This document shows, one piece after another, positions 2,531-59,383 of a stretch of 64,000 nucleotides of DNA. The position numbers were made by a program, and so were the translations under genes. This DNA is from a virus (taxonomy: Duplodnaviria; Heunggongvirae; Uroviricota; Caudoviricetes). Below the pieces are notes generated by a model that had not been told where the DNA came from, ran no database searches, and was given only the letters and a program-made list of their open reading frames with translations. The stretch lies in IMG/VR virus record IMGVR_UViG_3300015365_000054, one strand, 5' to 3'. Each line of letters starts with the position of its first letter. Within the stretch, counting starts at the first letter, position 1.

Positions 2531-2548
2531 GTGTATTGACCTAATTTA

Positions 2549-5500
2549 TTAAATGTTATTTTTTGTGGGAATCCCACCAGTAGATGTGGTTGGCGCAGCA
2601 CCATATACGGATGTTACCGGATTAGCATAATAATTTTGACTACTTACGATAACACCACTAGGTGTAGTAGGTAATATTGGTCGTGTCTCCAGCACATCTG
2701 GTGGTATATTTAGTGAGAACCAGAAATCAGAATCAGGATTCAATTTAAGATTACCATCAAATTTACCAAATAAGAAAGGATTCACCGTAACCTGTGTGGT
2801 TGCTGATGGCTGTTCTATTGCAGTTGTTTCTGTATAATTCAATACAATGCTCTTATCACCAACATATATAAGAGAACTATCATATGCACCAACTTGAAGT
2901 TGTGTACTGTTAAGATTTGCATATGCACCAAGTTTATTGTTTTCAATGGAGCATTTAAAATCGGGTGATAATGTATCTGCTGTGGAGAAATCAATGAAGC
3001 TATCCACAAGAATTCCATATTTTTCTTTTTGTGTTGCGTTATCTTTGTATAGTAGAACCTTATCCTTTGCTGTTTTTTCGGACAAACTCAAAGCAGTGTA
3101 ATACTCAATATTCTGTACTCTTTGTTCAAGATTACCTATATCTTGCATCGTATATCGTTTATGTTTAGTTAACGTTACATTAACATCGGACGGGAAATAT
3201 GTATATGCAGGTATACTTAATCTAAATAATTCCATGGAATTTGTATTATCCATTGGCGGAACCGGATTCTTTGCTGGTACACCAGATAACAATTTCATCT
3301 CTTTACTTTTTGTGAGAACAATTTTGTCTATTCTTGGTACATAGTATGCATACGTTAATCTAAAGACATCACTTGGTGATGGGGTTTTTGATCCATAATA
3401 CGTATTGGCAATATCTAATTTGACCCTAGTTGCTCTGAAATCAATACAATCACGTAAATTATATTCTGTACCATCTGATGTTATGAATGTGGGGATCGAA
3501 TTGTTTACATAATCTGATACATTCAGATATGAATCCACAGTGAAATACCCATTAGGACTACTGCTATGATCATAATATTGAGCCAATACAACAATACGTC
3601 CAGCCGGAACAGTTGCATTGGATTTTAGAACTATGCTGGCATGATCATATGTGGTTAATGTTTGTCCGGAATTTAGATAAAATCTATCTGTTATATCAAT
3701 TGCATTGCTTGGATTAGGATCAACCGAATTATCCCCAGAGGAATATATCTTCTTTATTCGGAACACATCAGGAAGGTATAGCGAAGTTTTTCCTTGCGGG
3801 TTTTTGTTGATGACAGTAGGATCAGTGAACCAAATAAACCCATTCGTGGTATTTACCTTAACCGATGTTTGTCCGGTAACTGAAGTTGTACCTGTACCAG
3901 ACAAATCACCGCTGGATAGTGTAGTTGTTGTATCATCACCGATTTTTGTTTTCGTTCGTAGATTTGGATTAGTACTTACAAGACTTCTATCCCAATTCGA
4001 TCTAACTTTAACAATGACATCAACTTTTGCTGTTGCACTGGCTGTTGTTCTATTTAAATTTAATGTTATTGATTGGTTTGTTGTTCTGGACACATATCCG
4101 ACACCACCCCCACCACTACCCGATAAATTTAATATTTCGCCGTTAGCTGTTACTGAGTTATTTGCCGACACCACGCATATGATGTTGTCATTGGCAGAAA
4201 CACCAACATTTGATCCATCAGTACCGAAATTAAATGTTTCATCACCAGATAATGTTATTGTTGCTTGTCCGGTAGTACTTAAAGTCAATCCCTTTATAAA
4301 TTTCTCATAAACAAAATCTGCTTTTGTTATGGAATTGTTTGCAATATGATCTTCTGGTAATTTGTATATGAATGAATTGATACTAGGATCATACATTATT
4401 GTAGAATTTGCTGCATCCTTACTAGTACTGGATATATCCATACTAACATTAAATACGGTCTTATTAGTCGATACTTCCACCATTGAATCTGTATCAGTAA
4501 TACCATACAAGAATGCTATATTACATGATGCTGTTGGAGTGACAGTGAATGTTCCTTGAATCGTCAGTGTTTTAGTGCCATCAGTGCCGCTATAACTCAA
4601 TACCTTTTTAACATCGCCAGCTGCTGCACCATCAAGCACTTTTATGGTTGTATTGGCATACGCATTAACCAAATTGCTATAATAAGCAGGAAGAGTTATC
4701 GTACTTATGGTTGGAACTGGTGATGCTACTGTTGCGACATTGGATACCATATTAACATTTGACAAATACATCGCATATTCTTTTGAATTTTTTCGGATCA
4801 CATTCAGAACGGTTGCTGATCCCATATATGTGGTATTATAACCAAGAAGGGATGTTGTATTAATATTACAAGATGGTACGCAATGCAAATCTATGGTTGG
4901 TAACTTGGTGATATCAAACATACCATTACTGGTATTTGATGTCGCAGCGGAATTTGTAGAAATAACATTAGATACATACAAATAATTGCCATAATTCATT
5001 GATAGGTCATAATCTGATGATGTATTTTGTGATCTTGCTTTAGGTATATTCAATACAGTTGAACCAACTGTTTCAAACTCATAACCGTTGATATAAGCCT
5101 TGCCCGGAGAAATACTAGCGACGAAATAATCATCCGATGTTGTATTAGCAGCAACAGAGATGGAGAAATCTTTTACAATATAATCACCAGATTCATCATA
5201 TGTTCGTCTTGCCAATGTCTTTTCCAATTCTGAGTATATTGGATAATCAACTTGCTTGGTGACAACACCATTTTCTACACGAAGCAACTCGAAAAACTTT
5301 TGATCTTCTATTGAAGTGAGGGATCGCTTTGCTAGATTTAGGCTAAATTTGTACCTTGCCGCACCAGGTGCTTGATAGTTAAATGAATCTTGTGCAGGAT
5401 CCAGTAAGTTGGCATCATCATTTTCATCCACAATAACATCATCTATTTCCAATCCAACTCTAAATGATGGTGTATTGCTATATGAATCCAGTACGATTGT

Positions 5501-23646: not shown

Positions 23647-23674
23647 AAAATGGGGGCTTTTCAGCCCCCAAATT
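23645..23674. terminator. bidirectional intrinsic terminator between the convergent gp29-like and gp32 genes
   Basis: AAAAAA followed by the hairpin TGGGGGCT-tttc-AGCCCCCA (8 bp, GC-rich) at 23651..23670. Confidence 0.6.
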
Positions 23675-25443: not shown

Positions 25444-25679
25444 AGCGGCAACCTACTTATCTTGGGAATGATTCTCATACTAGATGCTTCATTGGCTAAT
25501 AGACTCTTTAGATTTTCATCTATCATCTTAGCTGCCAATTCAACTTCCATTTCATTCTCTTCACAATATGTAGTAATGGAATCAATGTAATCACATTTTA
25601 ACCTAATTGCTCTTTCGATTATCATCATCGAGAATTTTTCTTTCTCTTGCTTGGATATTACTGCCATTAATAACCCCAT
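25440..25679 (-). CDS. late transcription co-activator gp33-like (79 aa)
   Basis: Small acidic protein in the T4 gene-33 position next to gene 59. Segment ITTYCEENEMEVELAAKMIDENL resembles T4 gp33 TTAFLEENSIPE...SEAIDENL. Recognised from memory only. Confidence 0.4.
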   Translation of the reverse strand: MGLLMAVISKQEKEKFSMMIIERAIRLKCDYIDSITTYCEENEMEVELAAKMIDENLKSLLANEASSMRIIPKISRLPL

Positions 25680-26299
25680 TATGTATTGGTCTTATAGAAC
25701 AAATGACCACCGATTTGTTTCACGAACACGCTAGATGTTGCCCAAGTTGGGGTGACGTAGCTTGCATGATAATTCATCACTGTTGGTGGTATTATACTGT
25801 ATTTCTTCTTGGAAAGCAAAATGTTCTCCGCAATCCGTTTAGAATCTCTCCAAGCGGATGTTGTTGATGATATTGCTTTCGATTTCACACAAACCCAACT
25901 AAACTGGCATGTTCCTTTTATTTTCTGCTTGACTACTCCACACACAGTGCTTGCATAATCTCCACTACGAACCCTATTCATTGTCACTTGAGCAACTGCA
26001 ATTTTTCCTTCAATTGGTTCTGCCCCAGCTTCATAATAGATATTCTGTGCCAGACAATCTACCTCTTTCATCATCACTTGCTGTTTATCGAATGAGAGTT
26101 GGTAAAACGACATACGAGTCTTCATCTCTTCCATTTCATCTACCAACTCTTGATACTTCTGCTCTTTTTGATTGATCTGGGATGTCAATTGTGCGGGTAT
26201 ATACAATGCCAATAAAAGGAATGTAAATAGCCCAAAAAATCTAATCCAAAGATTTCTAGTTCGATCAAAATACGCATCTATTTTATCGACATAAGTCAT
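25679..26299 (-). CDS. membrane-anchored cell-wall hydrolase, SleB/Hydrolase_2 family
   Basis: N-terminal TM segment (LWIRFFGLFTFLLLALYIP), a coiled-coil linker, and the SleB catalytic-domain signature NIYYEAGAEPIEGKIAVAQVTMNRV. Confidence 0.7.
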   Translation of the reverse strand: MTYVDKIDAYFDRTRNLWIRFFGLFTFLLLALYIPAQLTSQINQKEQKYQELVDEMEEMKTRMSFYQLSFDKQQVMMKEVDCLAQNIYYEAGAEPIEGKIAVAQVTMNRVRSGDYASTVCGVVKQKIKGTCQFSWVCVKSKAISSTTSAWRDSKRIAENILLSKKKYSIIPPTVMNYHASYVTPTWATSSVFVKQIGGHLFYKTNT

Positions 26300-26309: not shown

Positions 26310-27704
26310 CTATTCGTTAGACCTATTGCGAATCTCGTCAAACGTGTATTCTTTAACCAGCTTACCATTTTCAAATATTGTTTCCAGTACTGGTTTCCAT
26401 TCAACCCCACGATCCGCCCAATTAGTGGGCTTTTCGATAGATGATTGATATTCACCACCACATTCCCATAGCTCAATTCGTCCTTTCTTGCTGCGCTTTC
26501 CTGAATCTGTAATTGGATCTTTCTGTACATCTTCCCAAACATCATCAATACAAGCGGATGAACATTTCATAGCAAATTTTGCGGTATCTCGGACAACACC
26601 TTGAAGTAGAGCACCACCCATACCAAATGCGATGTTATCTGCACTCCATCCATTTACTTCAAACGTGTGTAGAATTGATTCAATGGTATTTTCGTTGACA
26701 CCATCGCCTTGAATCAGTCTTACATGATTCAGTACTTTGTATCCCTTAGAGTTTTTAATGTAACCAAATTTACTACCCAGAATCTCAATTAGCTTGATAT
26801 TGACTTCTACAGGGTCACCTGAATCAGGACGGATAACAACAACCGCACCGCTGTCGATAACTTCCTGTCTTAGTTCTTCACCCCACAGTTTTTCTGCGGC
26901 ATTAAACACATCATAACTATCAGATACGCATGCTAGGATAGCACCCGGTTTTGCATAATTTTTCAACATGTTTCTATATGCATCAACTTCACGGTCTCTG
27001 CCCCATGAAGTCACAGTGCTGTGCTCCATTGCTGGAATAGAGAAACCAGCAACACCGGCATCGTAATATTCTCTTGCATACAAGAGTCCAGTAATATTAT
27101 CAGTACCCATGAAATTTACAAGGTGAGCAGCACCACCAATACCAACACTTTCCATACTTGACCCACCACGAGCACCAAAATCATGCAATTTGAAATTGAT
27201 ACCAGCAGGATCACCTGTTAGATTTAGGTATGGTAGAATAATGTCTTTAATTGACCTACTTAGTGTAGCGACCGTGGTTGGATACCATACCGCACGTAAT
27301 AATGCAGTCTCTGCTTGAGTGGTTAACCAAAAGCAATTTGTGTCTGTGGCTTCAATCGTAACGAGAACGTTACTGGTTGGCAGAATAGTGCCTTCTGGTA
27401 CAGCCCGAATACGTAATGGCAAATAACCATTGTGTTTATCTAAAATATATTCCCATCCTGCACGATAGAATGGCACACCATGTGCTGTGAGAATCTCGTC
27501 TGCAATGGTAATATCTTCTTTGGTGATTGGCTTGGTTAGATAATCCTTAATGAATATCTGTAGCCCAAAGAATAGAGTCTTTTCCCACGCACCACCACGG
27601 GATTCGATATAAGAATATACACCAGTGGTATTTGGTGGATATTGGTTATACATCGAAGTTTTGTACGAATCTAAATTAAGTATGATATTATTTTCTAGTT
27701 TCAT
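26310..27704 (-). CDS. nadV: nicotinamide phosphoribosyltransferase (Nampt/NadV)
   Basis: 464 aa. N-terminus NIILNLDSYKTSMYNQYPPNTTGVYSYIESRGG is the Nampt signature. Confidence 0.9.
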   Translation of the reverse strand: MKLENNIILNLDSYKTSMYNQYPPNTTGVYSYIESRGGAWEKTLFFGLQIFIKDYLTKPITKEDITIADEILTAHGVPFYRAGWEYILDKHNGYLPLRIRAVPEGTILPTSNVLVTIEATDTNCFWLTTQAETALLRAVWYPTTVATLSRSIKDIILPYLNLTGDPAGINFKLHDFGARGGSSMESVGIGGAAHLVNFMGTDNITGLLYAREYYDAGVAGFSIPAMEHSTVTSWGRDREVDAYRNMLKNYAKPGAILACVSDSYDVFNAAEKLWGEELRQEVIDSGAVVVIRPDSGDPVEVNIKLIEILGSKFGYIKNSKGYKVLNHVRLIQGDGVNENTIESILHTFEVNGWSADNIAFGMGGALLQGVVRDTAKFAMKCSSACIDDVWEDVQKDPITDSGKRSKKGRIELWECGGEYQSSIEKPTNWADRGVEWKPVLETIFENGKLVKEYTFDEIRNRSNE

Positions 27705-27776
27705 TTTTTAAATCTCCTTTAAAATTAAATTGCCCCAAGTCTATCTTGAGGACTTCTCAACATTATAACAAAAAGT

Positions 27777-28286
27777 TCAACCAAATTCAACCAATGAAGT
27801 TTGGCAAGCATTATTAGAAACTATACTTGCAAACTCTTCGATCATATTAATAATGCGGGTTTTATCACCACAAGCCAATCCCATACCAATATACGGAAAC
27901 CCAAAACGCATTCCGACATGCATACCATAGATAAAAGACAATTTCTGTAGAATTAGTTGGAATGAATTATATTCAAATACATCCCTTCTTGCACCAGAAA
28001 CATTAATATTATATTGTGTGTATGCATTGATCACAGTAAAAGAAGATGCTGGGGATGAATCTGTTGCTGGTATAATTATCTCAGCATGAGTATAATTTCC
28101 CAATTTGTTATAGTCACCCCATTCTGATTGCTGATCCACAATCCATGCTGGCTCACAACGTCCTCTAATTTGCTTGGCAATACCACTACCCATAGTATTG
28201 AAACAATTACACCCATGGACAATCACATCAAACTGCCTATCAAACGCCATAGTGATCAAATCACCTTTTATACGTTGTAACATCAT
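27777..28286 (-). CDS. macro-domain protein (ADP-ribose or O-acetyl-ADP-ribose binding or hydrolysing)
   Basis: GDLITMAFDRQFDVIVHGCNCFNTMGSGIAKQI matches the macro-domain motif GDITxxxxDAIVNAANxxLxxGGGVxxAI. 169 aa. Confidence 0.65.
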   Translation of the reverse strand: MMLQRIKGDLITMAFDRQFDVIVHGCNCFNTMGSGIAKQIRGRCEPAWIVDQQSEWGDYNKLGNYTHAEIIIPATDSSPASSFTVINAYTQYNINVSGARRDVFEYNSFQLILQKLSFIYGMHVGMRFGFPYIGMGLACGDKTRIINMIEEFASIVSNNACQTSLVEFG

Positions 28287-28939
28287 TCACTCCTTGAGGT
28301 ATCATTACGTGTTACCTTACGTGCATACATTTCCCAATCATAATTGAATAGGTAATTGTGTGAATTATTCTCCAGATTATATCTATTATTAGAAAAAGAT
28401 AGTTTGACAAATGACCTGAGTATTGGTTCATCCACAACTGGATTGGCATGTACAATAGTGTTGTCTAATCTATACAATCCATAAGGTACGCAAGTCATTA
28501 CTGTATCTGGATTAATTTGCTGCTCAAATTGGGCAAGAGAAACTTCGTGATCATCCGAGATATCATAGAAATCCTGAAATGCATATTTCGTAGGACATAC
28601 ATCAGACCAGATATAGTTTATATCATCCGTACCAAATCCATCACAATGCCATCCAGCTCTATTTTGTGTATTGCCAGCAACCACCCATGATTTCTTTGCT
28701 GTTATGTATACGTATACTGGCAATATTTGATATGTAAGTACATAATCATCCAATGCCATTTTGACCAATGATCTAAGTGATTGCAGATTGGGTGGCAATC
28801 TGATTTCATCCTTGGCTTCCGGATACATCATAATGGGCAGATTCTGGTACAACATGAATTCAGAAATGCGACCCCCAACAATACCTAATCTAGTTGGAAG
28901 GGTAAATGAATATCTATCATCTGGTGTTTGGGTATTCAT
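28283..28939 (-). CDS. possible 2OG-Fe(II) oxygenase superfamily protein
   Basis: HxD (WHCDGFGTDD), a distal His (TIVHANP) and RxS 13 residues later (LRSFVKLSF) fit the HxD...H...RxS pattern. The evidence is weak. Confidence 0.3.
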   Translation of the reverse strand: MNTQTPDDRYSFTLPTRLGIVGGRISEFMLYQNLPIMMYPEAKDEIRLPPNLQSLRSLVKMALDDYVLTYQILPVYVYITAKKSWVVAGNTQNRAGWHCDGFGTDDINYIWSDVCPTKYAFQDFYDISDDHEVSLAQFEQQINPDTVMTCVPYGLYRLDNTIVHANPVVDEPILRSFVKLSFSNNRYNLENNSHNYLFNYDWEMYARKVTRNDTSRSE

Positions 28940-29220
28940 AGAGTCATATCCACTACTTCAAAAACATACAAGCATAATTCTTGCATGATAAAGAGTTTAC
29001 ATGTACCCAGAAATTTCAATTTACTAGGTTCAGTAACGATTGGCATGCCAGTCTTATAACATTCAAAATATCTTTTGGTTGGTTCTTTTTCTGTATCAAC
29101 CATAGCCCACATAAAGAACATACCATCAACATCTTCTACACGAATGATATTCGCACCATCTGGCAAGTTCAATGTAAATTTTTCTTGCACAGGAATCTGA
29201 TATTTAAAAATTGTATACAT
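28936..29220 (-). CDS. small hypothetical protein (about 94 aa from the internal Met MYTIFKY)
   Basis: Starts 1 nt after the natV stop, with a GGGGG Shine-Dalgarno inside the natV 3' end, so it is tightly coupled to natV. Confidence 0.4.
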   Translation of the reverse strand: MYTIFKYQIPVQEKFTLNLPDGANIIRVEDVDGMFFMWAMVDTEKEPTKRYFECYKTGMPIVTEPSKLKFLGTCKLFIMQELCLYVFEVVDMTL

Positions 29221-29221
29221 A

Positions 29222-30250
29222 TTAACCCCCAATAGCCCATGAAATGATATCGTAATGATCTTCAAAACATTCCCAGCGTTTTACTTCTGACAATGGAACC
29301 CACTTTGCTTTTTCAGCATCGTCCATGCCCTTTACTCTAGGAAGTTTACCATCAGGCAATACAATCTTGAATGCATGTGTTACAGTTCTGCCTCTTGATG
29401 AACGTCCAATTGCGTCAAATACTTTGCTATCTACGATTGATCCAGCTAGTACAGGCTCTGGTACTTTGATGCCAGTTTCTTCACGCAGTTCTCGTAACAT
29501 TGCTGCTTCAATGGATTTATCCGTGTCGGCATTGACAAACCCACCGGGTAGTGCCCACAAACCTTTACCGGGTAGTGCTTTTCGCTTGACCATCAGTACA
29601 TGACCAGACTGAATCACTATTGCATCAGTGGTGACAAAGATTGGTGGATGTGGAAGAGGTGCGTATGGTATGTTATATTTTTCAACATGTTGTCTTTCAG
29701 CAATGATCTGGTTAAATGCATCACGCTCATTGACATGAAATCGTTGCAGGAAAGATAGTGTTGATAATGGTACAACACCACGAATGAAATTGAAATTTAG
29801 ATTTTCTCTAAAGAACATTTCGCGGACTGCGGTCGCATCCAATGGTTCAAACAATGGTGTTTCAATGTGAACCCATTGAGGGAACATGTCTAGGTAATCT
29901 GAAGTCCGATCTTTCTTATGCCCAATAATCCCAATGTTGTTATCGATATGGTTGTCGATGCAACCATCGACAATTTCTTGTATCTGAGTTATCCATTTTG
30001 GATTATTATAGATGTAATCCACCGAATGATTGATCTCATAATTCACATCATATTGATTAACAATAGATGAAATCATCTCAGTTCTTTCTTTGAAATTGAA
30101 TGGATTTTTGTATGTTCTTGGTTGATCACAAGAACCGATAATGATAATTAGATTATCTGTTAGTGCTGCTGCACGACGAATTGTTTCTTCATGCCCATTA
30201 TGGCATGGTTGAAAACGTCCAATAAGGACTATATGACTATACACTTTCAT
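29222..30250 (-). CDS. natV: bifunctional NMN adenylyltransferase / Nudix ADP-ribose pyrophosphatase (NadM-Nudix, NatV)
   Basis: N-terminal IGRFQPCHNGHEETI carries the HxGH nucleotidyltransferase motif. C-terminal GGFVNADTDKSIEAAMLRELREETGIKV is a Nudix box. Confidence 0.9.
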   Translation of the reverse strand: MKVYSHIVLIGRFQPCHNGHEETIRRAAALTDNLIIIIGSCDQPRTYKNPFNFKERTEMISSIVNQYDVNYEINHSVDYIYNNPKWITQIQEIVDGCIDNHIDNNIGIIGHKKDRTSDYLDMFPQWVHIETPLFEPLDATAVREMFFRENLNFNFIRGVVPLSTLSFLQRFHVNERDAFNQIIAERQHVEKYNIPYAPLPHPPIFVTTDAIVIQSGHVLMVKRKALPGKGLWALPGGFVNADTDKSIEAAMLRELREETGIKVPEPVLAGSIVDSKVFDAIGRSSRGRTVTHAFKIVLPDGKLPRVKGMDDAEKAKWVPLSEVKRWECFEDHYDIISWAIGG

Positions 30251-30316
30251 TCTAACTCCTAGAATTTAAATTATCAACCAAGTCTATCTTGGTTATTCTT
30301 ATTTAGTACAAATTAA

Positions 30317-30643
30317 TCAAGATCCAACATGTAACACCAAAGTTTCACCCCGTGGGGAGAAACCTTCAATAAACACATGAAAACCATCACCACTATCACG
30401 AATACATGCATTCGCTGCCATATACAATGCAGCATATGTACTCCCCACAATCGCTCTGGTAATTGGCTTTCCACCCAAATGATTTTCGTGAGTTATTGTC
30501 TTTGCTGCTGCATATGGATGTGGTTTGTTGAGATTATCAATCTCAAAAATAGACCAAATAGCATCCAAATCAAGATCAGAACGAACACTTTCATAGTGTT
30601 CAAACTTCTCATGAAATGTATCATACTCAGGCAAAGTCTTCAT
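30317..30643 (-). CDS. hypothetical protein (108 aa), first gene downstream of a consensus sigma70 promoter
   Basis: ORF with its ATG 23 nt downstream of the predicted transcription start. No recognisable motif. Confidence 0.4.
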   Translation of the reverse strand: MKTLPEYDTFHEKFEHYESVRSDLDLDAIWSIFEIDNLNKPHPYAAAKTITHENHLGGKPITRAIVGSTYAALYMAANACIRDSGDGFHVFIEGFSPRGETLVLHVGS

Positions 30644-30672
30644 TTCAAAATCCCATTTGTTGGTATGGGGTA

Positions 30673-30701
30673 ATTATATAGGTAATTTGGTTATATGTCA
30701 A
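30673..30701 (-). promoter_or_regulatory. perfect consensus sigma70 promoter (TTGACA-17 nt-TATAAT) reading leftward into the NAD island
   Basis: Minus-sense ATCTTGACA-tataaccaaattaccta-TATAAT-taccc. The -35 element is the reverse complement of 30696..30701 and the -10 of 30673..30678. Confidence 0.7.
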
Positions 30702-31133
30702 GATAAAACACCAGACTATTTCTAGTCTGGTGGGTATTTTTGGTAACAAGGTATTTCCTACCCCGTGGAGATCACGCTGCTAGGCGGTCTGCTCCAAAAA
30801 ATGCGTCATTTGCATTTATATTTTTTGCTTCTTCGGCTAGGAAACTCCCAACCCTAACGGCTTTCACATTGCCGAATTGTCTGGTCTAATACTACGTCGC
30901 CTGTCGAACCTATTTCCAGCCCATCAAATATAGTCTGACTTCACAGACAGTAGAGACTATATTTGGTGGACTGGGCGAGGAACTGCCCCTCGCGTCCAGT
31001 CAACTGTTCTTATTCCTTCATACAATCATAAATATAACTAATAAGGAGTGTCCTGCTGTTCACAGGTCGGGAATTCCAGTCCTCTAAGTCGTGTTAAACT
31101 TATACTTACCACCCTAAACACCACTTCTATTTA
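30702..31133. other. ORF-free, relatively GC-rich structured spacer
   Basis: No ORF of 60 aa or more on either strand. Perfect 11-bp inverted repeat AAATATAGTCT...AGACTATATTT (30926..30964) and an extended hairpin GACTGG-GCGAGG...CCTCGC-G-TCCAGTC (30969..31001). Confidence 0.4.
30926..30964. repeat. perfect 11-bp inverted repeat with a 17-nt loop
   Basis: AAATATAGTCT (30926..30936) and AGACTATATTT (30954..30964). Confidence 0.8.
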
Positions 31134-31567: not shown

Positions 31568-32416
31568 TTACTTATTTGTAATCCCACTCAAGTTAATGAA
31601 TGGTGTGTTACCACCAGACACTGTTGGGAGTTTTCCATCCCAACGTTCAATCGCAGTCAGTTCAACCAGACGTGGATTCTCACGAAGAGCCTCACCACGG
31701 ATTCGGATTGATTCAGCTTCACCCTTGGCTTGAGCAATTGTCTTCGCAGCTTCGGCTTCTGCCTGTGCTACTTCATTCTGACGTTGCTGTGCCATCTGTG
31801 TTGCCTTAATCTTAGCATTGATTGAGTCTGTTACTGTTTCTGGTAGACGGAAATCACCTGCCCAGTATAGACGCTCAAGTTTAATACCAACAGGGTCAAC
31901 CTGCTCACGAACACGCTTTTCAACATCCGCAATCAACTCAGCCTTACCAGAACCATATACGCTTTCAATTGGCTTGGTGCTTGCAGCAGTAACCAATGCA
32001 TCACGAACCATGTTTCTCAGATAAGTATCTGTAATTTCATCAATACCCTTGCGGTACTTCTGATACAACATACTTACCTTTGCTGGATCAACTGAATAGC
32101 TAATACCCACGTCGCTGTTAACACTCAATCCTTCCACTGTCTGAAACGAAATTGATTCATCAGCAGCATTACCCTCATGTGTATTTTTAGTCCACGTATA
32201 ATTCTGTGTGAATGTTGGGAACAGATAAAGCTCCTCATTCACACCAATCCAGTATCGTCCTGGTGTCAATTCTTGCGTATCAACACCCTTCGCACCACCC
32301 AACAGATACACCTTGACACCTACGTTACCTGCGGGGACTTTTGAACACCCCACAAGACCAATCATCATAATCAACAGAATACTAAAGATCTTATTCACTG
32401 AATTTCTCCCATACAA
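31568..32416 (-). CDS. SPFH/band-7 (stomatin/prohibitin/HflKC-like) lipoprotein
   Basis: Signal peptide with lipobox LVGC. SPFH-like core with an Ala/Glu/Gln-rich coiled coil (QMAQQRQNEVAQAEAEAAKTIAQAKGEAESIRIRGEA). Confidence 0.6.
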   Translation of the reverse strand: MYGRNSVNKIFSILLIMMIGLVGCSKVPAGNVGVKVYLLGGAKGVDTQELTPGRYWIGVNEELYLFPTFTQNYTWTKNTHEGNAADESISFQTVEGLSVNSDVGISYSVDPAKVSMLYQKYRKGIDEITDTYLRNMVRDALVTAASTKPIESVYGSGKAELIADVEKRVREQVDPVGIKLERLYWAGDFRLPETVTDSINAKIKATQMAQQRQNEVAQAEAEAAKTIAQAKGEAESIRIRGEALRENPRLVELTAIERWDGKLPTVSGGNTPFINLSGITNK

Positions 32417-50254: not shown

Positions 50255-50342
50255 TGGCGGGTAGTGAAGGATTCGAACCCTCGTGGCTGTTACACCCATC
50301 TGATTTCAAATCAGCGACAATTGGCCTCTCTGTCAACTACCC
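50255..50342 (-). tRNA. tRNA-Ser (anticodon TGA), class II
   Basis: Acceptor GGGTAGT/ACTACCC, discriminator G, encoded CCA. Anticodon loop TTTGAAA, long variable arm, T-loop TTCGAAT. Confidence 0.75.
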
Positions 50343-50389
50343 ATAATCTTAGTGTATATTATTTATGATCAAATGTACAGCATTATTTT

Positions 50390-50479
50390 CGGAAGATGTA
50401 GGATTTGAACCCACAAACCATTTTTCAATGATCAAACAACTTTCGAAGTTGCGCGGCTCACCAATACCGTAGATCTTCC
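50390..50479 (-). tRNA. tRNA-Ser (anticodon CGA), class II
   Basis: Acceptor GGAAGAT/ATCTTCC, discriminator G. Anticodon loop TTCGAAA, long variable arm, T-loop TTCAAAT. CCA not encoded. Confidence 0.65.
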
Positions 50480-50484
50480 ATATA

Positions 50485-50931
50485 TTATTGCATAAATTCC
50501 GGAACTTGTCTATTTTTCCAGTGAGCAATATGCCCCTTATGTAATTTATAGTATTTTCGGTATGATTCAATAACATTATTAGTTTTACAATCATCTGGCA
50601 TTGCTTGTGCAAATGTAGTCAATTCCCCATCAGGAATGTTGTCTGGTGGTGATGTCAGTTGTTCGATTATAGCCTGACACTTATGCACTTTACCATATCT
50701 ATGCGTATATTCCTTACACAATGCAATCCCCAACTCAACCAACCAAGAATAATTTGATTTTGTTGATCTCGCCCATATAGTGCATGGGTGATTCCGATGT
50801 GTAGGTTTATACGGACCGCCACAAATCGTACTCAACATTTGTGCTGTCTCCAATGGCATCTTAACCACATGCTTATCCATGTGCATCTGTGCTGATATTA
50901 CAGGATCTTTATCTAATACAAATATGTTCAT
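50485..50931 (-). CDS. possible pyrimidine-dimer DNA glycosylase (DenV-like)
   Basis: 148 aa. N-terminus MNIFVLDKDPVISAQMHMDKHVVKMPLETAQML follows the pattern of the T4 endonuclease V N-terminus ([24 protein letters not shown]). Resemblance is weak and from memory. Confidence 0.3.
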   Translation of the reverse strand: MNIFVLDKDPVISAQMHMDKHVVKMPLETAQMLSTICGGPYKPTHRNHPCTIWARSTKSNYSWLVELGIALCKEYTHRYGKVHKCQAIIEQLTSPPDNIPDGELTTFAQAMPDDCKTNNVIESYRKYYKLHKGHIAHWKNRQVPEFMQ

Positions 50932-50945
50932 AATTTAGTGTGTAA

Positions 50946-51020
50946 TGGTGCGGATAGTGAGAATCGAACTCACATCTAAACGTTGGCAACGTCCAATAAT
51001 AGCCTTTATACCATATCCGC
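50946..51020 (-). tRNA. tRNA-Gly (anticodon GCC)
   Basis: Acceptor GCGGATA/TATCCGC, discriminator A, CCA encoded. Anticodon loop TTGCCAA, T-arm GTGAG-TTCGATT-CTCAC. Confidence 0.65.
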
Positions 51021-51033
51021 ATAATAATGTAAA

Positions 51034-51122
51034 TGGCAGAGGATAGTGGAATCGAACCACAGCCAGTTTCCCAACTATCTTGATTTCCAATCAAGCGCAG
51101 ATGCCAAACTGCAATATCCTCT
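51034..51122 (-). tRNA. tRNA-Ser (anticodon GGA), class II
   Basis: Acceptor AGAGGAT/ATCCTCT, discriminator G, CCA encoded. Anticodon arm CTTGA-TTGGAAA-TCAAG, long variable arm. Confidence 0.65.
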
Positions 51123-51124
51123 AC

Positions 51125-51199
51125 TGGTGCCCAAATAAGGAATCGAACCTTAATCTCATTCTTACCAAGAATGTATACTTACCATTGTAATATATGGGC
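51125..51199 (-). tRNA. tRNA-Thr (anticodon GGT)
   Basis: Anticodon arm CATTC-TTGGTAA-GAATG, T-loop TTCGATT, CCA encoded. One acceptor mismatch. Confidence 0.6.
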
Positions 51200-51204
51200 A
51201 ATGA

Positions 51205-51627
51205 TTACCTAATACCGATTAAAACAGCGTGATCATAAATGAGTTCACAGTCTGGCATGTCAACAACATATACACATGGTATCATTTTGGTCGAATCATT
51301 TCTTCTACCTTCAAGATTAAAATAATTACCTTCCCACATAACATTTCTATAACAATGTATTGTTGCTGTGTCATTATGACTGAAGTTGATCGTGCATCCC
51401 CTAATCAGTCTATTACCAATATAAGATGGTATTTCTATGGAGTTGTGGATATGATATATCTTACCATCAACTAATTGATTATAGGTGATATCATTCAACA
51501 AATCATTTTCATTTAGTTCTCTGGTATATTGATTCGTTTTGGGTAAAATCCGTAAATTTTTAGCTGCCACAGGAAATGCAACCACCGAAGCAATACCCAA
51601 TCCAAGCAAAAAATGTCGTCTATTCAT
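51205..51627 (-). CDS. secreted protein with a twin-arginine (Tat) signal peptide (140 aa)
   Basis: N-terminus MNRRHFLLGLGIASVVAFPVAAK matches the Tat consensus (S/T)RRxFLK followed by an AxA-like cleavage site. Confidence 0.45.
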   Translation of the reverse strand: MNRRHFLLGLGIASVVAFPVAAKNLRILPKTNQYTRELNENDLLNDITYNQLVDGKIYHIHNSIEIPSYIGNRLIRGCTINFSHNDTATIHCYRNVMWEGNYFNLEGRRNDSTKMIPCVYVVDMPDCELIYDHAVLIGIR

Positions 51628-51644
51628 AACAAATTCCTCGTATT

Positions 51645-51717
51645 TGGTAGCGGGCTAGGGTAACGATCCCTATTCGACTTAGGCTTATGAGACCTAGCGG
51701 TGCCATCACAACCCGCA
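51645..51717 (-). tRNA. tRNA-Met/fMet/Ile2 (anticodon CAT) with an unpaired 1-72 position and an atypical T-loop ATCGTTA
   Basis: Acceptor TGCGGGT/GCCCGCT with T-T at 1-72. Anticodon arm TAGGT-CTCATAA-GCCTA, T-arm TAGGG-ATCGTTA-CCCTA, CCA encoded. The 1-72 mismatch suggests an initiator. Confidence 0.5.
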
Positions 51718-51721
51718 AAAC

Positions 51722-51796
51722 TGGTGCGCAAAGAAGGACTTGAACCTTCATCCTCGGTTTCGTAAACCGAAATTCTCTCCATTGAACTATTCGCGC
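51722..51796 (-). tRNA. tRNA-Arg (anticodon ACG)
   Basis: Acceptor GCGCGAA/TTTGCGC, anticodon arm TCGGT-TTACGAA-ACCGA, T-loop TTCAAGT, CCA encoded. Confidence 0.75.
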
Positions 51797-51801
51797 AAAA
51801 T

Positions 51802-51876
51802 TGGTTGTGGCGGTCAGACTCGAACTGACACATAATCCCCTATGATGGGATCTTTCTACCATTGAACTACACCACA
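51802..51876 (-). tRNA. tRNA-Met or Ile2 (anticodon CAT)
   Basis: Acceptor TGTGGTG/CGCCACA, D-arm AGTTCAATGGTAGAA, anticodon arm ATCCC-ATCATAG-GGGAT, T-loop TTCGAGT, CCA encoded. Confidence 0.7.
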
Positions 51877-52093
51877 ATATTATTTATTTAAACAATACAT
51901 ATCCGGCATCAGATGGGAAGGAACTTCCCCAATCCATAATTTTCTTAATATCGTCCGCTTCACTTGCACCATCTACTTGCCCAACATAGTACTTGTGACT
52001 AAAATCATCACAAATTACCTTAACAATGCCGACATTACCATGTCCCGCACAAAACCACTTTACACCAACAAATGATTGCATATATACCTCTTG

Positions 52094-52167
52094 TGGGTTT
52101 ACTGAGATTCGAACTCAGATCATACTGGGTAAGAGCCAGATATAATAGCCATTATACGATAAACCCA
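52094..52167 (-). tRNA. tRNA-Lys (anticodon CTT); the anticodon assignment is tentative
   Basis: Acceptor GGGTTTA/TAAACCC, T-arm CTGAG-TTCGAAT-CTCAG. Best anticodon parse is a 4-bp stem with loop CTCTTAC. Confidence 0.5.
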
Positions 52168-52181
52168 AATTAATTGCAAAC

Positions 52182-52400
52182 TTAAACTCCAAAATGGTCA
52201 ATAATTCTCGCAACTGCTTCATATGCCACACCATTTTCGTCTTTCCTAATTTGTGCAATGCATTCATTCACAATCAATGCGGTGAACTTTTGTAAATCTT
52301 CTTCTTTATAGAACTTGACAGAGGTTGACATACCTTCCCACCATCCAGGGAAGAATTCTCCACCAGCCTGTTCAGCCAATACTTTAATTCTTTCATTCAT
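52182..52400 (-). CDS. hypothetical protein (72 aa)
   Basis: ORF only. Confidence 0.3.
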   Translation of the reverse strand: MNERIKVLAEQAGGEFFPGWWEGMSTSVKFYKEEDLQKFTALIVNECIAQIRKDENGVAYEAVARIIDHFGV

Positions 52401-52581
52401 ACATCACCATCAACTTCTAAAATCAACTCGAAACCAAACGCCAGTCGCATCACACCTTTCTTCAGCATCAGCAAACTGATCTGCTTCGGGGACATTATCA
52501 AACTCCGCCACATCCTTTTCCCAAGTTTCATAACCATCGTTAAAGCATCTGACCACAACCCACGTCATTTCAATCTCCTGA

Positions 52582-52827
52582 TTAAACACAACCTTCTAAT
52601 AACTGACTGACCCAGATCGATTTAGTATTATCGACCAACGTCCCGTCACTGGTTGCAACTTTAACCTTAACAACACGATCTGGTTTACCAAATCTCTTAG
52701 AAACATCTTCTAGTGATAGAACTGTAGAGACGTAGAAGAAAGCATCCCCATACCAACCTTTGCGTAAACTGCTAGTGAATATATCACCAACTTTCACGTT
52801 TAAATAATTTGGGTTATTTGCTGGCAT
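52582..52827 (-). CDS. hypothetical protein (81 aa)
   Basis: ORF only. Confidence 0.3.
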   Translation of the reverse strand: MPANNPNYLNVKVGDIFTSSLRKGWYGDAFFYVSTVLSLEDVSKRFGKPDRVVKVKVATSDGTLVDNTKSIWVSQLLEGCV

Positions 52828-52908
52828 TTCTCTCTACCTCAATTCACTATAGAATCATTATACACGAAAAAAGTAAAAAAGCAATAGAAAAATTAGACAA
52901 ATTTAAAA

Positions 52909-52984
52909 TGGCGACCCCGCAAGGATTCGAACCTCGATTTTACGGCTTTGGAGACCGATGTAATAGCCATTATACCACGGAGTC
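52909..52984 (-). tRNA. tRNA-Trp (anticodon CCA)
   Basis: Acceptor GACTCCG/CGGGGTC (one G-T), discriminator G, CCA encoded. Anticodon loop CTCCAAA on a 4-bp stem, T-loop TTCGAAT. Confidence 0.6.
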
Positions 52985-53075
52985 ATAGTGCTAGGACTCG
53001 AACCTAGTATCGTAATGCGATTTCACGTAGGGCAACGTAACCTTCCTACGCCTTACCATACAGCTGGAGGCACAT
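52985..53075 (-). other. tRNA-like element: canonical T-arm (CTAGG-TTCGAGT-CCTAG) without a resolvable acceptor stem
   Basis: Perfect T-arm at 52991..53007 abutting tRNA-Trp. No complementary 5' acceptor strand within 120 nt. Possible pseudo-tRNA or a fold I could not resolve. Confidence 0.3.
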
Positions 53076-53108
53076 TTGATAGCAAAATCCTGCCACTGTA
53101 TATATTTA

Positions 53109-53183
53109 TGGTGTGACATGCAGGATTCGAACCTACATCAAGAGTTTAGGAAACTCCTATTCTATCCATTGAACTAATGTCAC
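53109..53183 (-). tRNA. tRNA-Arg (anticodon CCT)
   Basis: Acceptor GTGACAT/ATGTCAC, anticodon arm GGAGT-TTCCTAA-ACTCT, T-loop TTCGAAT, CCA encoded. Confidence 0.65.
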
Positions 53184-53186
53184 AAT

Positions 53187-53606
53187 TTATCGCCCACATT
53201 TGGTGGCTATTTCCACTAGATTGGGTGTTTCCAACACTGTTCTACTTGCTAAGAAACGGGTATCTGAAGAGTCACCATCTATCCTAACCCAAATGTATTC
53301 TGATGGTTTGGGTTCGATGTATTTAACCACGCCACGGCTGATTCTCTCGAATCCATGAAAAATACCTACTCTACTACCGATATTAACAGTGTCAATCTCT
53401 AAAATGGTTTTTAATTTGGCTGTCAGGATATTTTTCTGTATTGGGGATGATGTAGCATCATCAACACATACACCAATGATCATTTTTGTATATTCCTTTA
53501 GATCAAAGTTATCACACTGAGAACACGAATCAAAATCATCTTCTTGCCACCCAGCCTGTGCTGCTATTTTTTCCCATCTATTCATAATATTCATAACCTT
53601 ACTCAT
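53187..53606 (-). CDS. hypothetical protein (139 aa)
   Basis: ORF only. Cys pair CSQCDN near the N-terminus. Confidence 0.35.
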   Translation of the reverse strand: MSKVMNIMNRWEKIAAQAGWQEDDFDSCSQCDNFDLKEYTKMIIGVCVDDATSSPIQKNILTAKLKTILEIDTVNIGSRVGIFHGFERISRGVVKYIEPKPSEYIWVRIDGDSSDTRFLASRTVLETPNLVEIATKCGR

Positions 53607-53626
53607 AATCTACCTCTATATTAAAT

Positions 53627-53710
53627 TGGTGCGAGTGGTCGGACTCGAACCGACATGATTTTCATCGACGGATTTTAAGTCCGTTGCGTCTACCATTTCA
53701 CCACACTCGC
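53627..53710 (-). tRNA. tRNA-Leu (anticodon TAA), class II
   Basis: Acceptor GCGAGTG/CACTCGC, anticodon arm ACGGA-CTTAAAA-TCCGT, long variable arm, T-loop TTCGAGT, CCA encoded. Confidence 0.75.
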
Positions 53711-53711
53711 A

Positions 53712-53930
53712 TTATGCATTAATTTTCTTTACAAATTTATCATATAGGATTTTAAGTTTAATTTTAATTGTCTGATCCCTATCAACCAAGTACGTGATGG
53801 AATTACCTGTTTTTTCTATCACGTAATAATTTTTAACTATGTTACGAAATGTTTCATCTTCCACAAAATACATGTATAACAAATCCCAGCCTTCCGGTGT
53901 GATATTTTCAGCTTGTAATTCTTGTATCAT
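53712..53930 (-). CDS. hypothetical protein (72 aa)
   Basis: ORF only. Confidence 0.3.
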   Translation of the reverse strand: MIQELQAENITPEGWDLLYMYFVEDETFRNIVKNYYVIEKTGNSITYLVDRDQTIKIKLKILYDKFVKKINA

Positions 53931-53939
53931 AAATCCCCC

Positions 53940-54272
53940 TTAGAACATTGTTCTTATTTCTATTCCATATTTGGATGGTCTGATATAAGTGTTTCCTAAC
54001 CAGACACCAAGTGATGCTCCAACAGCATCAGCCAACAAATCGCCCTTTGAAAATATGTTGTTATGTTGTCTTGAATCAATAATTTCTTTGATAAGACCAG
54101 ATGCCATAGCAACACCAAAAGCAGCATATTTGTTTTCTATCAGTGTCCCTGATGCAGCACCTAATAATAGGGATACACCAGCATGATAGTTTTTGTCAAC
54201 ACCATATGTATCCGTCTCTGCTGCAATGGCTGTTGATGATAAAAGTAACAATAAAATATATAATGTTTTCAT
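53940..54272 (-). CDS. small secreted or membrane protein with an N-terminal signal peptide and a Gly/Ala-rich hydrophobic core (110 aa)
   Basis: MKTLYILLLLLSSTAIAAE signal peptide. Gly-zipper-like segments GAASGTL and GVAMASG. Confidence 0.35.
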   Translation of the reverse strand: MKTLYILLLLLSSTAIAAETDTYGVDKNYHAGVSLLLGAASGTLIENKYAAFGVAMASGLIKEIIDSRQHNNIFSKGDLLADAVGASLGVWLGNTYIRPSKYGIEIRTMF

Positions 54273-54478
54273 ACAGTGATGTTATTGACGAATGAATCCA
54301 ATACTTCCATTTTAAATCGGTTACATCCAAAACTATCTTTCTGATTGTCCATTTCATATCTATCCGAAGTAGAATATGCCTCTCTTTCATCAGTATGAAT
54401 GGAGACAACATCTATTGTATCATCTATTATATCTCGACGTATTACAACATATAACATTTTAACATTTATGTCCATCAA
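54269..54478 (-). CDS. hypothetical protein (69 aa)
   Basis: ORF only. Confidence 0.25.
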   Translation of the reverse strand: MMDINVKMLYVVIRRDIIDDTIDVVSIHTDEREAYSTSDRYEMDNQKDSFGCNRFKMEVLDSFVNNITV

Positions 54479-54499
54479 TAAACCCTCATGATATTAAAT

Positions 54500-54577
54500 T
54501 GGTCGGGTATGCAGGATTTGAACCTGCAACCTTCTGCTCCCAAAGCAGACGCACTACCAAGTTGTGCTAATACCCGA
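54500..54577 (-). tRNA. tRNA-Pro (anticodon TGG), copy 1
   Basis: Acceptor (T)CGGGTA/TACCCGA, anticodon arm TCTGC-TTTGGGA-GCAGA, T-loop TTCAAAT, CCA encoded. Confidence 0.7.
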
Positions 54578-54586
54578 ATTTCAAAA

Positions 54587-54662
54587 TGGTGCAAGGTCCA
54601 AGATTTGAACTTGATTCTTACCGTCTTCAGCGGTACGCTATGACCACACCAGCTCACCTTGC
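54587..54662 (-). tRNA. tRNA-Phe (anticodon GAA)
   Basis: Acceptor GCAAGGT/ACCTTGC, anticodon arm TACCG-CTGAAGA-CGGTA, T-loop TTCAAAT, CCA encoded. Confidence 0.8.
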
Positions 54663-55297
54663 AATATTCTTTTGTATTCTGCTTTCTCAACAATTACTAT
54701 TTTTTTATCCGGATGCTGTTCCATTACAGCCTCCATTTTTTGCTTATCATTTCCCCACCAGTATCCTTTAATCTCAAGATAAACATTAAATCCAGAGAGA
54801 TAGAAATCTGGAGAGTAAGATCTAATTTTACCATTTAATACATACTTTATCAAATCTGTATTGGTTTTTGGTTTGCTCCAGTCAATTCCCATTTCGTTTA
54901 ACTTTAATGCTATATTGTATTCCCATGTACCTTGTACCTTAATACCATTAACATCAAACCATTTACATTTTCCGCCACGATTTTTTATGGATTGTTCTTC
55001 GCTTAATTTCAAGCGAGCTGATTCCCCCATACGATTGATTCGATATGTGCCGTTTTTAACTTTAGTTTGTAGTGTATCTGAAACTGCTTTGGCGTGTCTT
55101 GCTACAGCATCACTAGTTTCTTTTGTTAATCCTTTATTCCACGCAGGAACCCCAACTGGGTGACCAACTTTACCTGGTCTATTTGCACGTTCTTCTTGCA
55201 TTCGTAAACACTTTGATTGATGATCTTTATGTCTAGTTGATACAATAGATTTATTACAATGAATACAATTTCTATAACTCTTAATATACATGGGCAT
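54638..55297 (-). CDS. putative endonuclease: N-terminal Zn-finger plus C-terminal PD-(D/E)xK-like domain (possible free-standing homing endonuclease)
   Basis: CIHCNKS...H..H..C finger and a C-terminal YSPDFYL...NVYLEIKGYW (D...E-x-K) motif. The 3' end overlaps tRNA-Phe by about 25 nt, so the true stop may differ. Confidence 0.3.
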   Translation of the reverse strand: MPMYIKSYRNCIHCNKSIVSTRHKDHQSKCLRMQEERANRPGKVGHPVGVPAWNKGLTKETSDAVARHAKAVSDTLQTKVKNGTYRINRMGESARLKLSEEQSIKNRGGKCKWFDVNGIKVQGTWEYNIALKLNEMGIDWSKPKTNTDLIKYVLNGKIRSYSPDFYLSGFNVYLEIKGYWWGNDKQKMEAVMEQHPDKKIVIVEKAEYKRILQGELVWS

Positions 55298-55368
55298 ATC
55301 TCCTCTACACCAATGTATTTATTATTCAGTGCTAATCCATCTCAGCTAAGTTGGCAAATAAACGACTT

Positions 55369-55447
55369 TGGGGTGACTGGTGGGACTTGAACCCACAAAA
55401 ATCCAAGGTCACAGCTTGGGATGTCTACCAATTCCATCACAGTCACC
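55369..55447 (-). tRNA. tRNA-His (anticodon GTG) with an encoded G-1
   Basis: 8-bp acceptor G-1 plus GTGACTG paired with CAGTCAC plus C73. Anticodon arm CCAAG-CTGTGAC-CTTGG, T-loop TTCAAGT, CCA encoded. Confidence 0.8.
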
Positions 55448-55480
55448 CCAAAGTCGTCTAATTATAAGATAACACACCAG

Positions 55481-56672: not shown

Positions 56673-56679
56673 CAAACAT

Positions 56680-56955: not shown

Positions 56956-56971
56956 ATAATCTCCAAAACAA

Positions 56972-57046: not shown

Positions 57047-57052
57047 TATAAA

Positions 57053-59377: not shown

Positions 59378-59383
59378 CTACAG

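Follow-up and report, generated by a model that had tools for sequence, protein, structure and literature searches.

A homologue of the Adpp macro-domain protein encoded between NARP2-type NAD+ reconstitution genes of an uncultivated T4-like phage

Depletion of NAD+ is among the commonest strategies used by bacteria against phages, and the reconstitution of NAD+ by phages (NARP1, NARP2 and NARP3) is under very active study. The subject of this study is a gene island at positions 26310-30701 of IMG/VR record IMGVR_UViG_3300015365_000054, in which a gene encoding a macro-domain protein is situated between natV and nadV, the two genes of a NARP2-type pathway. The whole stretch analysed, referred to as the window, comprises 64 kb of a genome of roughly 195-200 kb, and all features whose window coordinates are given below lie on its minus strand. 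The source phage is T4-like, with a low G+C content (approximately 0.37). Metagenomic contigs of approximately 195-199 kb encode proteins identical to those of the window. When the island was compared by megablast with 50,697 phage records, no match was obtained; none of these records thus represents a close cultured relative.

Two described systems are closest to this locus. The first is NARP2 (Nampt with Nmnat) of Vibrio phage KVP40 (Lee et al. 2017; Osterman et al. 2024), for which the NadV, NMN adenylyltransferase (NMNAT) and Nudix reactions are given as established by Lee et al. (2017). The second is a form of NARP1. Defence proteins of the aRES type, which contain a RES domain, split NAD+ into nicotinamide and ADP-ribose-1''-phosphate (ADPR-1''P), and the latter cannot be used by NARP1 (2026 preprint of the Sorek laboratory, 10.64898/2026.01.28.702374). 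Fifteen per cent of NARP1 operons, designated NARP1-AP, carry Adpp, a Poa1p-like macro-domain protein that dephosphorylates ADPR-1''P (10.64898/2026.01.28.702374). The Adpp of Vibrio phage Gary, where it accompanies Adps and Namat, was found by liquid chromatography-mass spectrometry to convert ADPR-1''P to ADP-ribose (ADPR) and is required against aRES (Osterman et al., bioRxiv 10.64898/2026.01.28.702374). The phosphatase is essential in NARP1 because Adps cannot use ADPR-1''P. Rescue of NARP1 from RES-type cleavage is the sole role described for a phage macro phosphatase, and the same work indicates that NARP2 needs no such help. Thus NARP2 is known, as is the extension of NARP1 by a macro phosphatase, but no description of a macro-bearing NARP2 variant was found.

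The original prediction had described the island as a KVP40-type pair of NAD+ salvage genes extended by several others, and profile searches bear out the pair itself. The nadV product (26310-27704) matched the Pfam families NAPRTase (8.5e-62) and NAMPT_N (7.3e-25), scored 617 bits against the NCBIfam equivalog NF006629 (cutoff 405) and matched phrog_448 with an E value of 7e-156. It is a nicotinamide phosphoribosyltransferase of the Nampt clade, not a Namat, sharing only 30% identity with Namat from phage TAC1. The natV gene (29222-30250) encodes an NMNAT fused to a Nudix ADPR pyrophosphatase, with the motifs GRFQPxHxGH and RELREETG and with Pfam matches to CTP_transf_like (1.4e-12) and NUDIX (9.4e-20). 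Its match to NF003786, the NCBIfam profile for bifunctional NMNAT/Nudix proteins, has an E value of 1e-104 and a score of 350.6 bits, which is below the 397-bit equivalog cutoff. Its product is approximately 36% identical to NatV from a KVP40-like phage. A tblastn search with the Adps of TAC1 revealed no Adps homologue in the window, which represents 64 kb of the genome of roughly 195-200 kb. On these matches the pair is assigned to the KVP40-type NARP2 pathway. As in KVP40, a Nampt-clade NadV and an NMNAT-Nudix NatV are encoded on one strand in the early-gene region of a T4-like phage; the reactions catalysed, and the part played against NAD+-depleting defence, are presumably the same. The locus differs from that of KVP40 in that a macro gene and a foreign cassette separate natV from nadV.

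Identification of the macro-domain protein (169 aa; 27777-28286) needed alignments, structure prediction and a fold search. Direct Pfam and NCBIfam scans gave no match, and a single-sequence search of the PDB yielded only a marginal match to Poa1p (E value 0.18). The protein does, however, match phrog_335 (2.3e-34), Pfam Macro is matched by 28 of its 32 homologues, and a profile of the family matches Poa1p (6lfu, 1.9e-5) as well as other solved macrodomains. An AlphaFold2 model (pLDDT 87) retrieved TARG1, Poa1p and the DarG macrodomains, each at a Foldseek probability of 1.0. The macro domain that had been proposed is therefore present, in the Poa1p/TARG1-like class, as evidenced by the homologues, the family profile and the fold rather than by a Pfam match of its own.

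Comparison with characterised members of the class points to Adpp. Aligned over its full length, the protein shares 28% identity with the Adpp of phage Gary (E value 6e-13); it shares 38-40% with the NARP1-associated macro proteins of Acinetobacter phages listed in Table S1 of 10.64898/2026.01.28.702374. Its active-site loop (H24, N27, T31 and G33-S34-G35) is conserved, and the loop sequence, CNCFNTMGSGIAKQIR, is that of the NARP1-associated Pakpunavirus macro proteins except for the first residue. When the catalytic residues listed for Poa1p in PMC12846349 (His23, Asn26, Ser30 and Gly33) are considered, the His and Asn are kept and Ser30 is replaced by Thr, a substitution noted likewise for a Pakpunavirus protein (PMC12846349). 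Identity to yeast Poa1p, human TARG1 and DarG is below 20%, and those proteins function in tRNA splicing, in de-ADP-ribosylation of protein or DNA, or as part of a toxin-antitoxin system, whereas the window protein is encoded in a phage salvage operon. In a neighbour-joining tree the macro proteins embedded in NARP2 loci form a clade of their own, marked by a C-terminal TLVEF and by the loop GMGLAGGDK/NK where Adpp has GGDW; the nearest branches are NARP1-associated macro proteins of the Acinetobacter-phage and Vibrio Gary types. The window protein is predicted from these comparisons to be an ADPR-1''P phosphatase or a 1''-ADPR hydrolase.

The same comparisons bear on two other functions. One is that of a de-ADP-ribosylase, acting on phage DNA, RNA or proteins marked by host ADP-ribosyltransferases (ARTs) such as DarT and CmdT-like enzymes, or trimming marks made by an ART of the phage itself; the link to NARP2 would then arise only through the shared consequences of NAD+ consumption. 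The top Foldseek matches do include TARG1 (E value 1.6e-7) and the DarG macrodomains, and the ADPR freed would still be a substrate for the Nudix domain, so that the genetic linkage is compatible with this function. The closest characterised relative by sequence is nevertheless the small-molecule phosphatase Adpp/Poa1p, with the same active-site loop, the gene is positioned strictly within the NAD+ salvage operon, no ART family was detected among the 42 other window proteins scanned with Pfam, and phage macro domains have been argued to favour soluble ADPr derivatives (Iyer et al. 2022, PMC9503650). De-ADP-ribosylation is accordingly regarded as unlikely.

The other function is the degradation of immune signals. 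Macro-fold enzymes such as PARG can cleave 1''-O-glycosidic ribose-ribose bonds. Cleavage of this kind, which is possible for the fold, could open 1''-2' or 1''-3' glycocyclic ADPR (gcADPR), and similar activity on His-ADPR can be envisaged; Thoeris-type signalling would be silenced while NARP2 refilled the NAD+ pool, and the product, ADPR, would be usable by the Nudix domain. Macro domains that target cyclic ADPR have been predicted (Iyer et al. 2022). Against this, neither sequence nor fold revealed any similarity specific to PARG-type macro domains, the closest homologue of established activity is a phosphatase, and literature searches found no experimental precedent. The proposal in the original prediction that the macro protein might degrade ADPR-derived immune signals is thus unsupported, and its chances appear slim.

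The association of the macro gene with NARP2 is apparent across relatives. A scan of IMG/VR anchored on the macro protein found 418 relatives, and the following counts refer to the best 80 loci. In these, natV or nadV was present within 8 kb of the macro gene in 73 and both genes in 61; the macro gene lay between natV and nadV in 56, contig ends having cut many of the others, and Adps took the place of the NARP2 genes in one. In a second scan, anchored on NatV, nadV was situated downstream in 70 of 80 loci, with the macro gene between the two in 43 of those 70 (61%). Another 26 of the 70 lacked the macro gene, and the gap between natV and nadV in them was often only 42-119 nt. Seven metagenomic macro homologues (50-66% identity), selected solely for their long contigs, gave a similar picture, with nadV adjoining the macro gene in six and the macro gene between natV and nadV in five.

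Close relatives differ in other cargo and yet retain the macro gene. Among the window and the contigs L003 and L016, whose NatV proteins are 92% and 94% identical to that of the window, respectively, all three carry it. The order in the window is natV-DUF7352-2OG-macro-nadV, where 2OG denotes a gene of the 2-oxoglutarate (2OG)-Fe(II) oxygenase fold. In L016 it is natV-macro-171 aa-nadV, with a macro protein 66% identical to that of the window. In L003 it is natV-DUF7352-2OG-macro-six small genes-nadV, with a macro protein of 52% identity, a DUF7352 protein of 90% and a 2OG protein of only 55%. Between these close relatives, NatV, DUF7352 and NadV are 88-94% identical, and the divergence of the macro and 2OG proteins (52-66% and 55%) amid such conserved operon genes indicates replacement of alleles by recombination, or fast evolution. 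In three further loci (L017, L019 and L021), the gap between natV and nadV is a variable cargo slot beside the macro gene, containing genes for radical-SAM, R2K ATP-grasp, nucleoside-deoxyribosyltransferase-like (PF15891) and, weakly, YAcAr/SLOG proteins; some of these domain families are tied to nucleotide or ADPR chemistry.

These counts tie the macro gene functionally to the NARP2 pathway and show the natV-macro-nadV arrangement to be widespread in uncultivated T4-like phages. The macro gene had originally been considered an unusual addition. It proves to be a true partner (56 of 80 and 43 of 70 loci), but unusual it is not, being the majority state in this clade and having a precedent in NARP1 (10.64898/2026.01.28.702374). 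The window system is consequently a NARP2 member with an Adpp homologue, and not NARP1-AP. It shares with the latter a homologous macro protein inside a NAD+ reconstitution operon, with the same active-site loop and identities of 28% to Gary Adpp and up to 40% to other NARP1-associated macro proteins. It differs in the partner, which is a Nampt-clade NadV with NatV, with no Adps in the window, and in the frequency of the macro gene, which is present in approximately 61% of the NARP2 operons surveyed as against the 15% reported for NARP1. It differs also in that the phosphatase is essential in NARP1-AP, whereas NARP2 works without one in published data; the role of the macro protein in NARP2 would therefore be one of recycling or detoxification through the Nudix step.

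Literature searches revealed no description of the natV-macro-nadV arrangement. Macro domains are not mentioned in the original NARP paper, and the survey in the aRES preprint covers NARP1 operons only (10.64898/2026.01.28.702374). The distribution seen here, in which the cultured NARP2 phages sampled mostly lack an adjacent macro gene, may explain why no description was encountered. NADAR domains near NadM/NadV, and macro domains in 41% of myoviruses, were noted by Iyer et al. (2022).

Taken together, these data favour, with a probability of roughly 0.6, the interpretation that the core of the island is a three-enzyme NAD+ reconstitution operon, in which NARP2 is joined by an Adpp-like macro-domain enzyme that would recycle modified ADPR, the DUF7352-2OG pair and the small gene ORF108 being insertions. 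NadV would form NMN from nicotinamide and phosphoribosyl pyrophosphate (PRPP), and the N-terminal domain of NatV would adenylate NMN to NAD+. In the same protein, the Nudix domain would split ADPR into AMP and ribose-5-phosphate, and from the latter host Prs could make PRPP. From ADPR derivatives the macro enzyme would strip the group at the 1'' position, a phosphate or some other substituent, the main candidate substrate being ADPR-1''P produced by RES-type NAD+ phosphorylases. The plain ADPR released would be fed to the Nudix domain, and the resulting AMP and ribose-5-phosphate could refill the PRPP and ATP pools drained by NARP2. The macro enzyme may also clear ADPR-1''P as a potentially toxic metabolite; this compound has been listed as such (Iyer et al. 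2022). That the macro protein might feed ADPR into the Nudix step had been suggested in the original prediction, and homology to the characterised Adpp supports this as the most likely mechanism. The presence of an Adpp-like macro gene in approximately 60% of the operons of the clade, and its retention while other cargo turns over, suggests that NARP2 gains from the processing of modified ADPR. The gain could lie in closing, via the Nudix domain, a loop that recycles ribose-phosphate and adenylate, or in the removal of a toxic or signalling metabolite.

Several observations weigh against this interpretation. NARP2 of KVP40, without any macro gene, already cancels aRES defence (10.64898/2026.01.28.702374), and the macro protein is therefore not required for that phenotype; its benefit would be one of efficiency or detoxification rather than all-or-none, or its substrate would be a different one. 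The separate clade of the NARP2-embedded macro proteins has a second glycine loop of GGDK or GGNK (ACGDK in the window) as opposed to the GGDW of Adpp, and their substrate specificity may differ from that of Adpp. In the Foldseek comparison, TARG1 and DarG match no less well than Poa1p. Finally, none of the eight cultured NARP2 phages sampled has a macro gene of the window family next to its NARP2 genes. Such a gene is absent from the vicinity in phi-Grn1, DSS3_MAL1, Vibrio 2.275.O, BUDD, Yut2 and RHph_X66; in Synechococcus phage B23 a macro gene is situated 25 kb from natV, and in phiM7 a different gene, matching Pfam Macro, lies 1.5 kb past nadV. The KVP40-like phage phi-Grn1 differs further from the window in having neither nadV nor a macro gene of the window family within 10 kb of natV. 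The small genes adjoining natV in DSS3_MAL1, BUDD and phi-Grn1 were considered as candidates and rejected, since they encode neither macro nor DUF7352 proteins. Three cloned genes and the aRES, SIR2 and TIR assays already available would suffice for a direct test of what the macro gene contributes to NARP2.

The NARP2-embedded macro proteins could also be broader or different 1''-ADPR hydrolases rather than simply ADPR-1''P phosphatases, and, in a related sense, the gap between natV and nadV could be a dedicated integration hotspot for counter-defence genes. Such proteins may, for example, open gcADPR or His-ADPR signals or strip ADP-ribose from phage nucleic acid, and the cargo of the hotspot (DUF7352-2OG, radical SAM with ATP-grasp, SLOG/YAcAr and deoxyribosyltransferase-like genes) might in part be directed at molecules, as yet undescribed, that derive from NAD+ or ADPR. 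The natV-macro-nadV arrangement would then be an operon for combined signal quenching and NAD+ refilling. This possibility appears quite unlikely.

Poa1p itself suggests a further function, its original role being the clearance of Appr-1''p in yeast tRNA splicing (10.64898/2026.01.28.702374; Iyer et al. 2022). The window macro protein could, by analogy, clear Appr-1''p generated during phage RNA repair, by KptA/Tpt1 and then a 2H phosphoesterase, with the connection to NAD+ being secondary. The window does encode an RNA ligase and a metallophosphoesterase, and RNA-repair genes are found near NAD genes in L018, L019 and TAC1. The macro gene, however, is located between natV and nadV and not beside the RNA ligase, and neither KptA/Tpt1 (PTS_2-RNA) nor a 2H family was detected among the 42 scanned proteins, which represent 64 kb of the genome of approximately 195-200 kb. 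A by-product of RNA repair is thus a rather remote candidate for the principal substrate.

The genes between natV and the macro gene present a different pattern. Within an ORF that overlaps the 3' end of natV, the first gene, DUF7352 (94 aa; 28936-29220; Pfam PF24043, E value 7.6e-20), most likely starts at the ATG at 29220, one base past the natV stop codon. The second (218 aa; 28283-28939; phrog_1843) encodes a protein with the double-stranded beta-helix fold of the Fe(II)/2OG oxygenase superfamily, as had been anticipated. Direct scans gave no match in Pfam (E values up to 0.1) or NCBIfam (E values up to 1), and no sequence match was found in the PDB; as with the macro protein, alignments, structure prediction and a fold search were required. 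Among 36 homologues, residues H98-x-D100, H164 and R175 never vary and have the canonical spacing; they are candidates for the HxD/E...H iron triad and for the basic residue that binds the C5 carboxylate of 2OG. The family differs from known members of the superfamily (EvdO2, AlkB homologues and prolyl hydroxylases) in being phage-specific, paired with DUF7352 and unmatched by Pfam or NCBIfam profiles.

The original prediction had placed these two genes, together with the macro gene and ORF108, in one expanded anti-NAD-depletion module. Several features would accord with a single six-gene module. The genes from natV to the macro gene are tightly packed with overlapping stop and start codons, the order natV-DUF7352-2OG-macro recurs in L003, a 2OG-like gene directly follows nadV in L111 (the only other contig in which the two adjoin), and in Xanthomonas phage BUDD a 2OG oxygenase gene unrelated to the window family adjoins the NAD+ synthase gene near natV. 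The survey data argue otherwise. The 2OG-like gene was present in none of the 160 loci anchored on the macro protein or NatV, and DUF7352 was represented there by one weak partial match. DNA alignment of the window with L016, whose NatV is so similar, reveals a clean insertion of approximately 910 nt, comprising DUF7352 and the 2OG-like gene, located in the window downstream of the natV stop codon and ahead of the macro start codon. Elsewhere the 2OG family occurs in phage genomes of 40-60 kb, where the neighbourhoods sampled contain Pnkp, RNA ligase or replication genes and not NAD genes. Thus, in Microbacterium phage Fork, DSS3_VP1 and Erythrobacter XM05 the gene lies beside Pnkp and RNA ligase genes, and a podophage of 43 kb carries it among its early genes.

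Among 33 unrelated IMG/VR loci, DUF7352 is the commonest Pfam neighbour of the 2OG-like family, and in eight of them the two genes are directly adjacent, the stop codon of one overlapping the start codon of the other; other neighbours are PolyA_pol (a nucleotidyltransferase of the poly(A)-polymerase/CCA-adding type), DNA ligase, RtcB, PNKP and hmdU kinase. In Fork, DSS3_VP1, XM05 and RHEph01, the small genes that precede the 2OG-like gene gave no Pfam match to DUF7352. A 218-aa gene upstream of the macro gene in phage B23 was also considered and is not homologous to the window protein of the same length (E value 1.4). It is concluded that DUF7352-2OG forms a mobile, translationally coupled, two-gene cassette of 0.9 kb inserted at the natV/macro junction. 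The cassette probably functions on nucleic acids, the substrate of the 2OG-like protein being most likely related to nucleic acid. Its absence from the 160 loci, the clean indel relative to L016 and its recurrence among genes of RNA repair and DNA metabolism indicate that it is a passenger. A tightly packed neighbour is not necessarily a member of a module, and the oxygenase here serves as a caution in this respect, being part of a hitch-hiking cassette.

ORF108 (108 aa; 30317-30643), the first gene behind the island promoter and ahead of the natV ribosome-binding site, is a conserved phage protein with 71 database homologues of 45-58% identity, mostly 149-165 aa in length. The C-terminal core of the family, WAALYxAANACIRDSGDxHHVFIE, is conserved, and the window copy lacks the N-terminal approximately 45 aa. 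No match to ORF108 was found in Pfam, PHROG or PADLOC. It is absent from the corresponding position in L003 and L016, and the two homologue loci examined are phage-like and lack NAD-salvage Pfam families. ORF108 is a lineage-specific insertion between a conserved promoter and the natV ribosome-binding site, outside the NAD+ chemistry. Both of the small ORFs originally reported, DUF7352 and ORF108, are therefore present, but of the proposed expansion only the macro gene stands; a single functional unit of six genes is highly improbable. The BUDD locus (L013, positions 2502-4062), in which a 2OG-FeII_Oxy_3 gene adjoins the NAD+ synthase gene three genes upstream of natV, adds a second phage locus with a 2OG oxygenase gene close to NAD genes.

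The organization of transcription was also considered. A sigma-70 consensus promoter, TTGACA-17-TATAAT, matching at 12 of 12 positions, is located at 30673-30701, ahead of ORF108. As originally stated, it is the only exact match to a perfect consensus (TTGACA-N15-19-TATAAT) in the window. Such a match is not statistically remarkable by itself, the mean chance expectation being 0.32, with at least one site in 27 of 100 shuffled sequences. The promoter is taken as real because it directly follows a strong terminator (30709-30732) and because L003 has TTGACA-17-TACAAT at the same position. It is probably a T4-like early promoter driving ORF108-natV-DUF7352-2OG-macro. The four genes natV, DUF7352, 2OG and macro adjoin head to tail at the junctions TAAtATG, ATGA and ATGA/TGATG, and their co-transcription and translational coupling are very likely.

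The arrangement before nadV is different. A gap of 72 nt separates the macro gene from nadV, and a promoter-like site, TTGAAT-17-TATAAT with an upstream TG (10 of 12 positions), is situated at 27762-27790, overlapping the 3' end of the macro gene. In the relatives L030, L034, L078, L080 and L082, the end of the macro gene is precisely where TTGACA-N17-TANAAT starts. In view of these sites, nadV probably has an early promoter of its own in addition to read-through, and the block is probably not, as had been proposed, the unit of a single promoter. The operon would thus be expressed early, from the sigma-70 promoter and from the second promoter-like site before nadV. No convincing terminator was found downstream of the island before 23651-23670, past the gp32 gene, so that the transcription unit extends beyond 26310-30701; transcription probably continues past nadV to that terminator.

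Directly past nadV is a gene whose product is a cell-wall hydrolase of SleB-like type with a hydrophobic segment at its N terminus (25679-26299); it is followed on the same strand by genes for a gp33-type late-transcription coactivator, gp59 and gp32. Upstream of the island is a gene for a Band-7/SPFH lipoprotein (31568-32416). Genes of the SleB and Band-7/prohibitin types are also situated near the NARP2 genes of DSS3_MAL1, and Band-7/prohibitin genes near those of RHph_X66, L018 and L020.

Immediately upstream of the island promoter, and accompanied by the terminator at 30709-30732, is a permuted (two-piece) tmRNA at 30772-31027. It scored 97.6 bits against Rfam RF04321 (gathering score 47) and 66 bits against alpha_tmRNA, and was not called by ARAGORN; its tag reading frame is ANDAFFGADRLAA*. 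The same tmRNA is present ahead of natV in L003 (85 bits) and in L006, where it is cut by the contig end. The two-piece form hints at a host of alphaproteobacterial type.

The window also contains a tRNA array (50255-60045), with 27 tRNAs identified by ARAGORN and approximately 29 by Rfam. Most amino acids are represented, and small ORFs are scattered through the array. The Pfam scan of the 42 other window proteins, encoded in the 33-64 kb portion, revealed the RNA ligase, Metallophos_2, peptidyl-tRNA hydrolase PTH2, PhoH, S-adenosylmethionine decarboxylase, a DSP-type phosphatase, a SprT-like protein and several HNH/TnsA-like endonucleases. A PADLOC search of the window gave nothing relevant. 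In the closest relative (L003/L005, positions 1-2452), multihaem cytochrome-like genes were observed, with mostly weak matches to Cytochrome_C7, c3 and Paired_CXXCH, and a gene combining Fer4 with a pyridine-nucleotide-disulphide oxidoreductase lies a few kilobases upstream of the NAD operon. All of these may be auxiliary metabolic genes.

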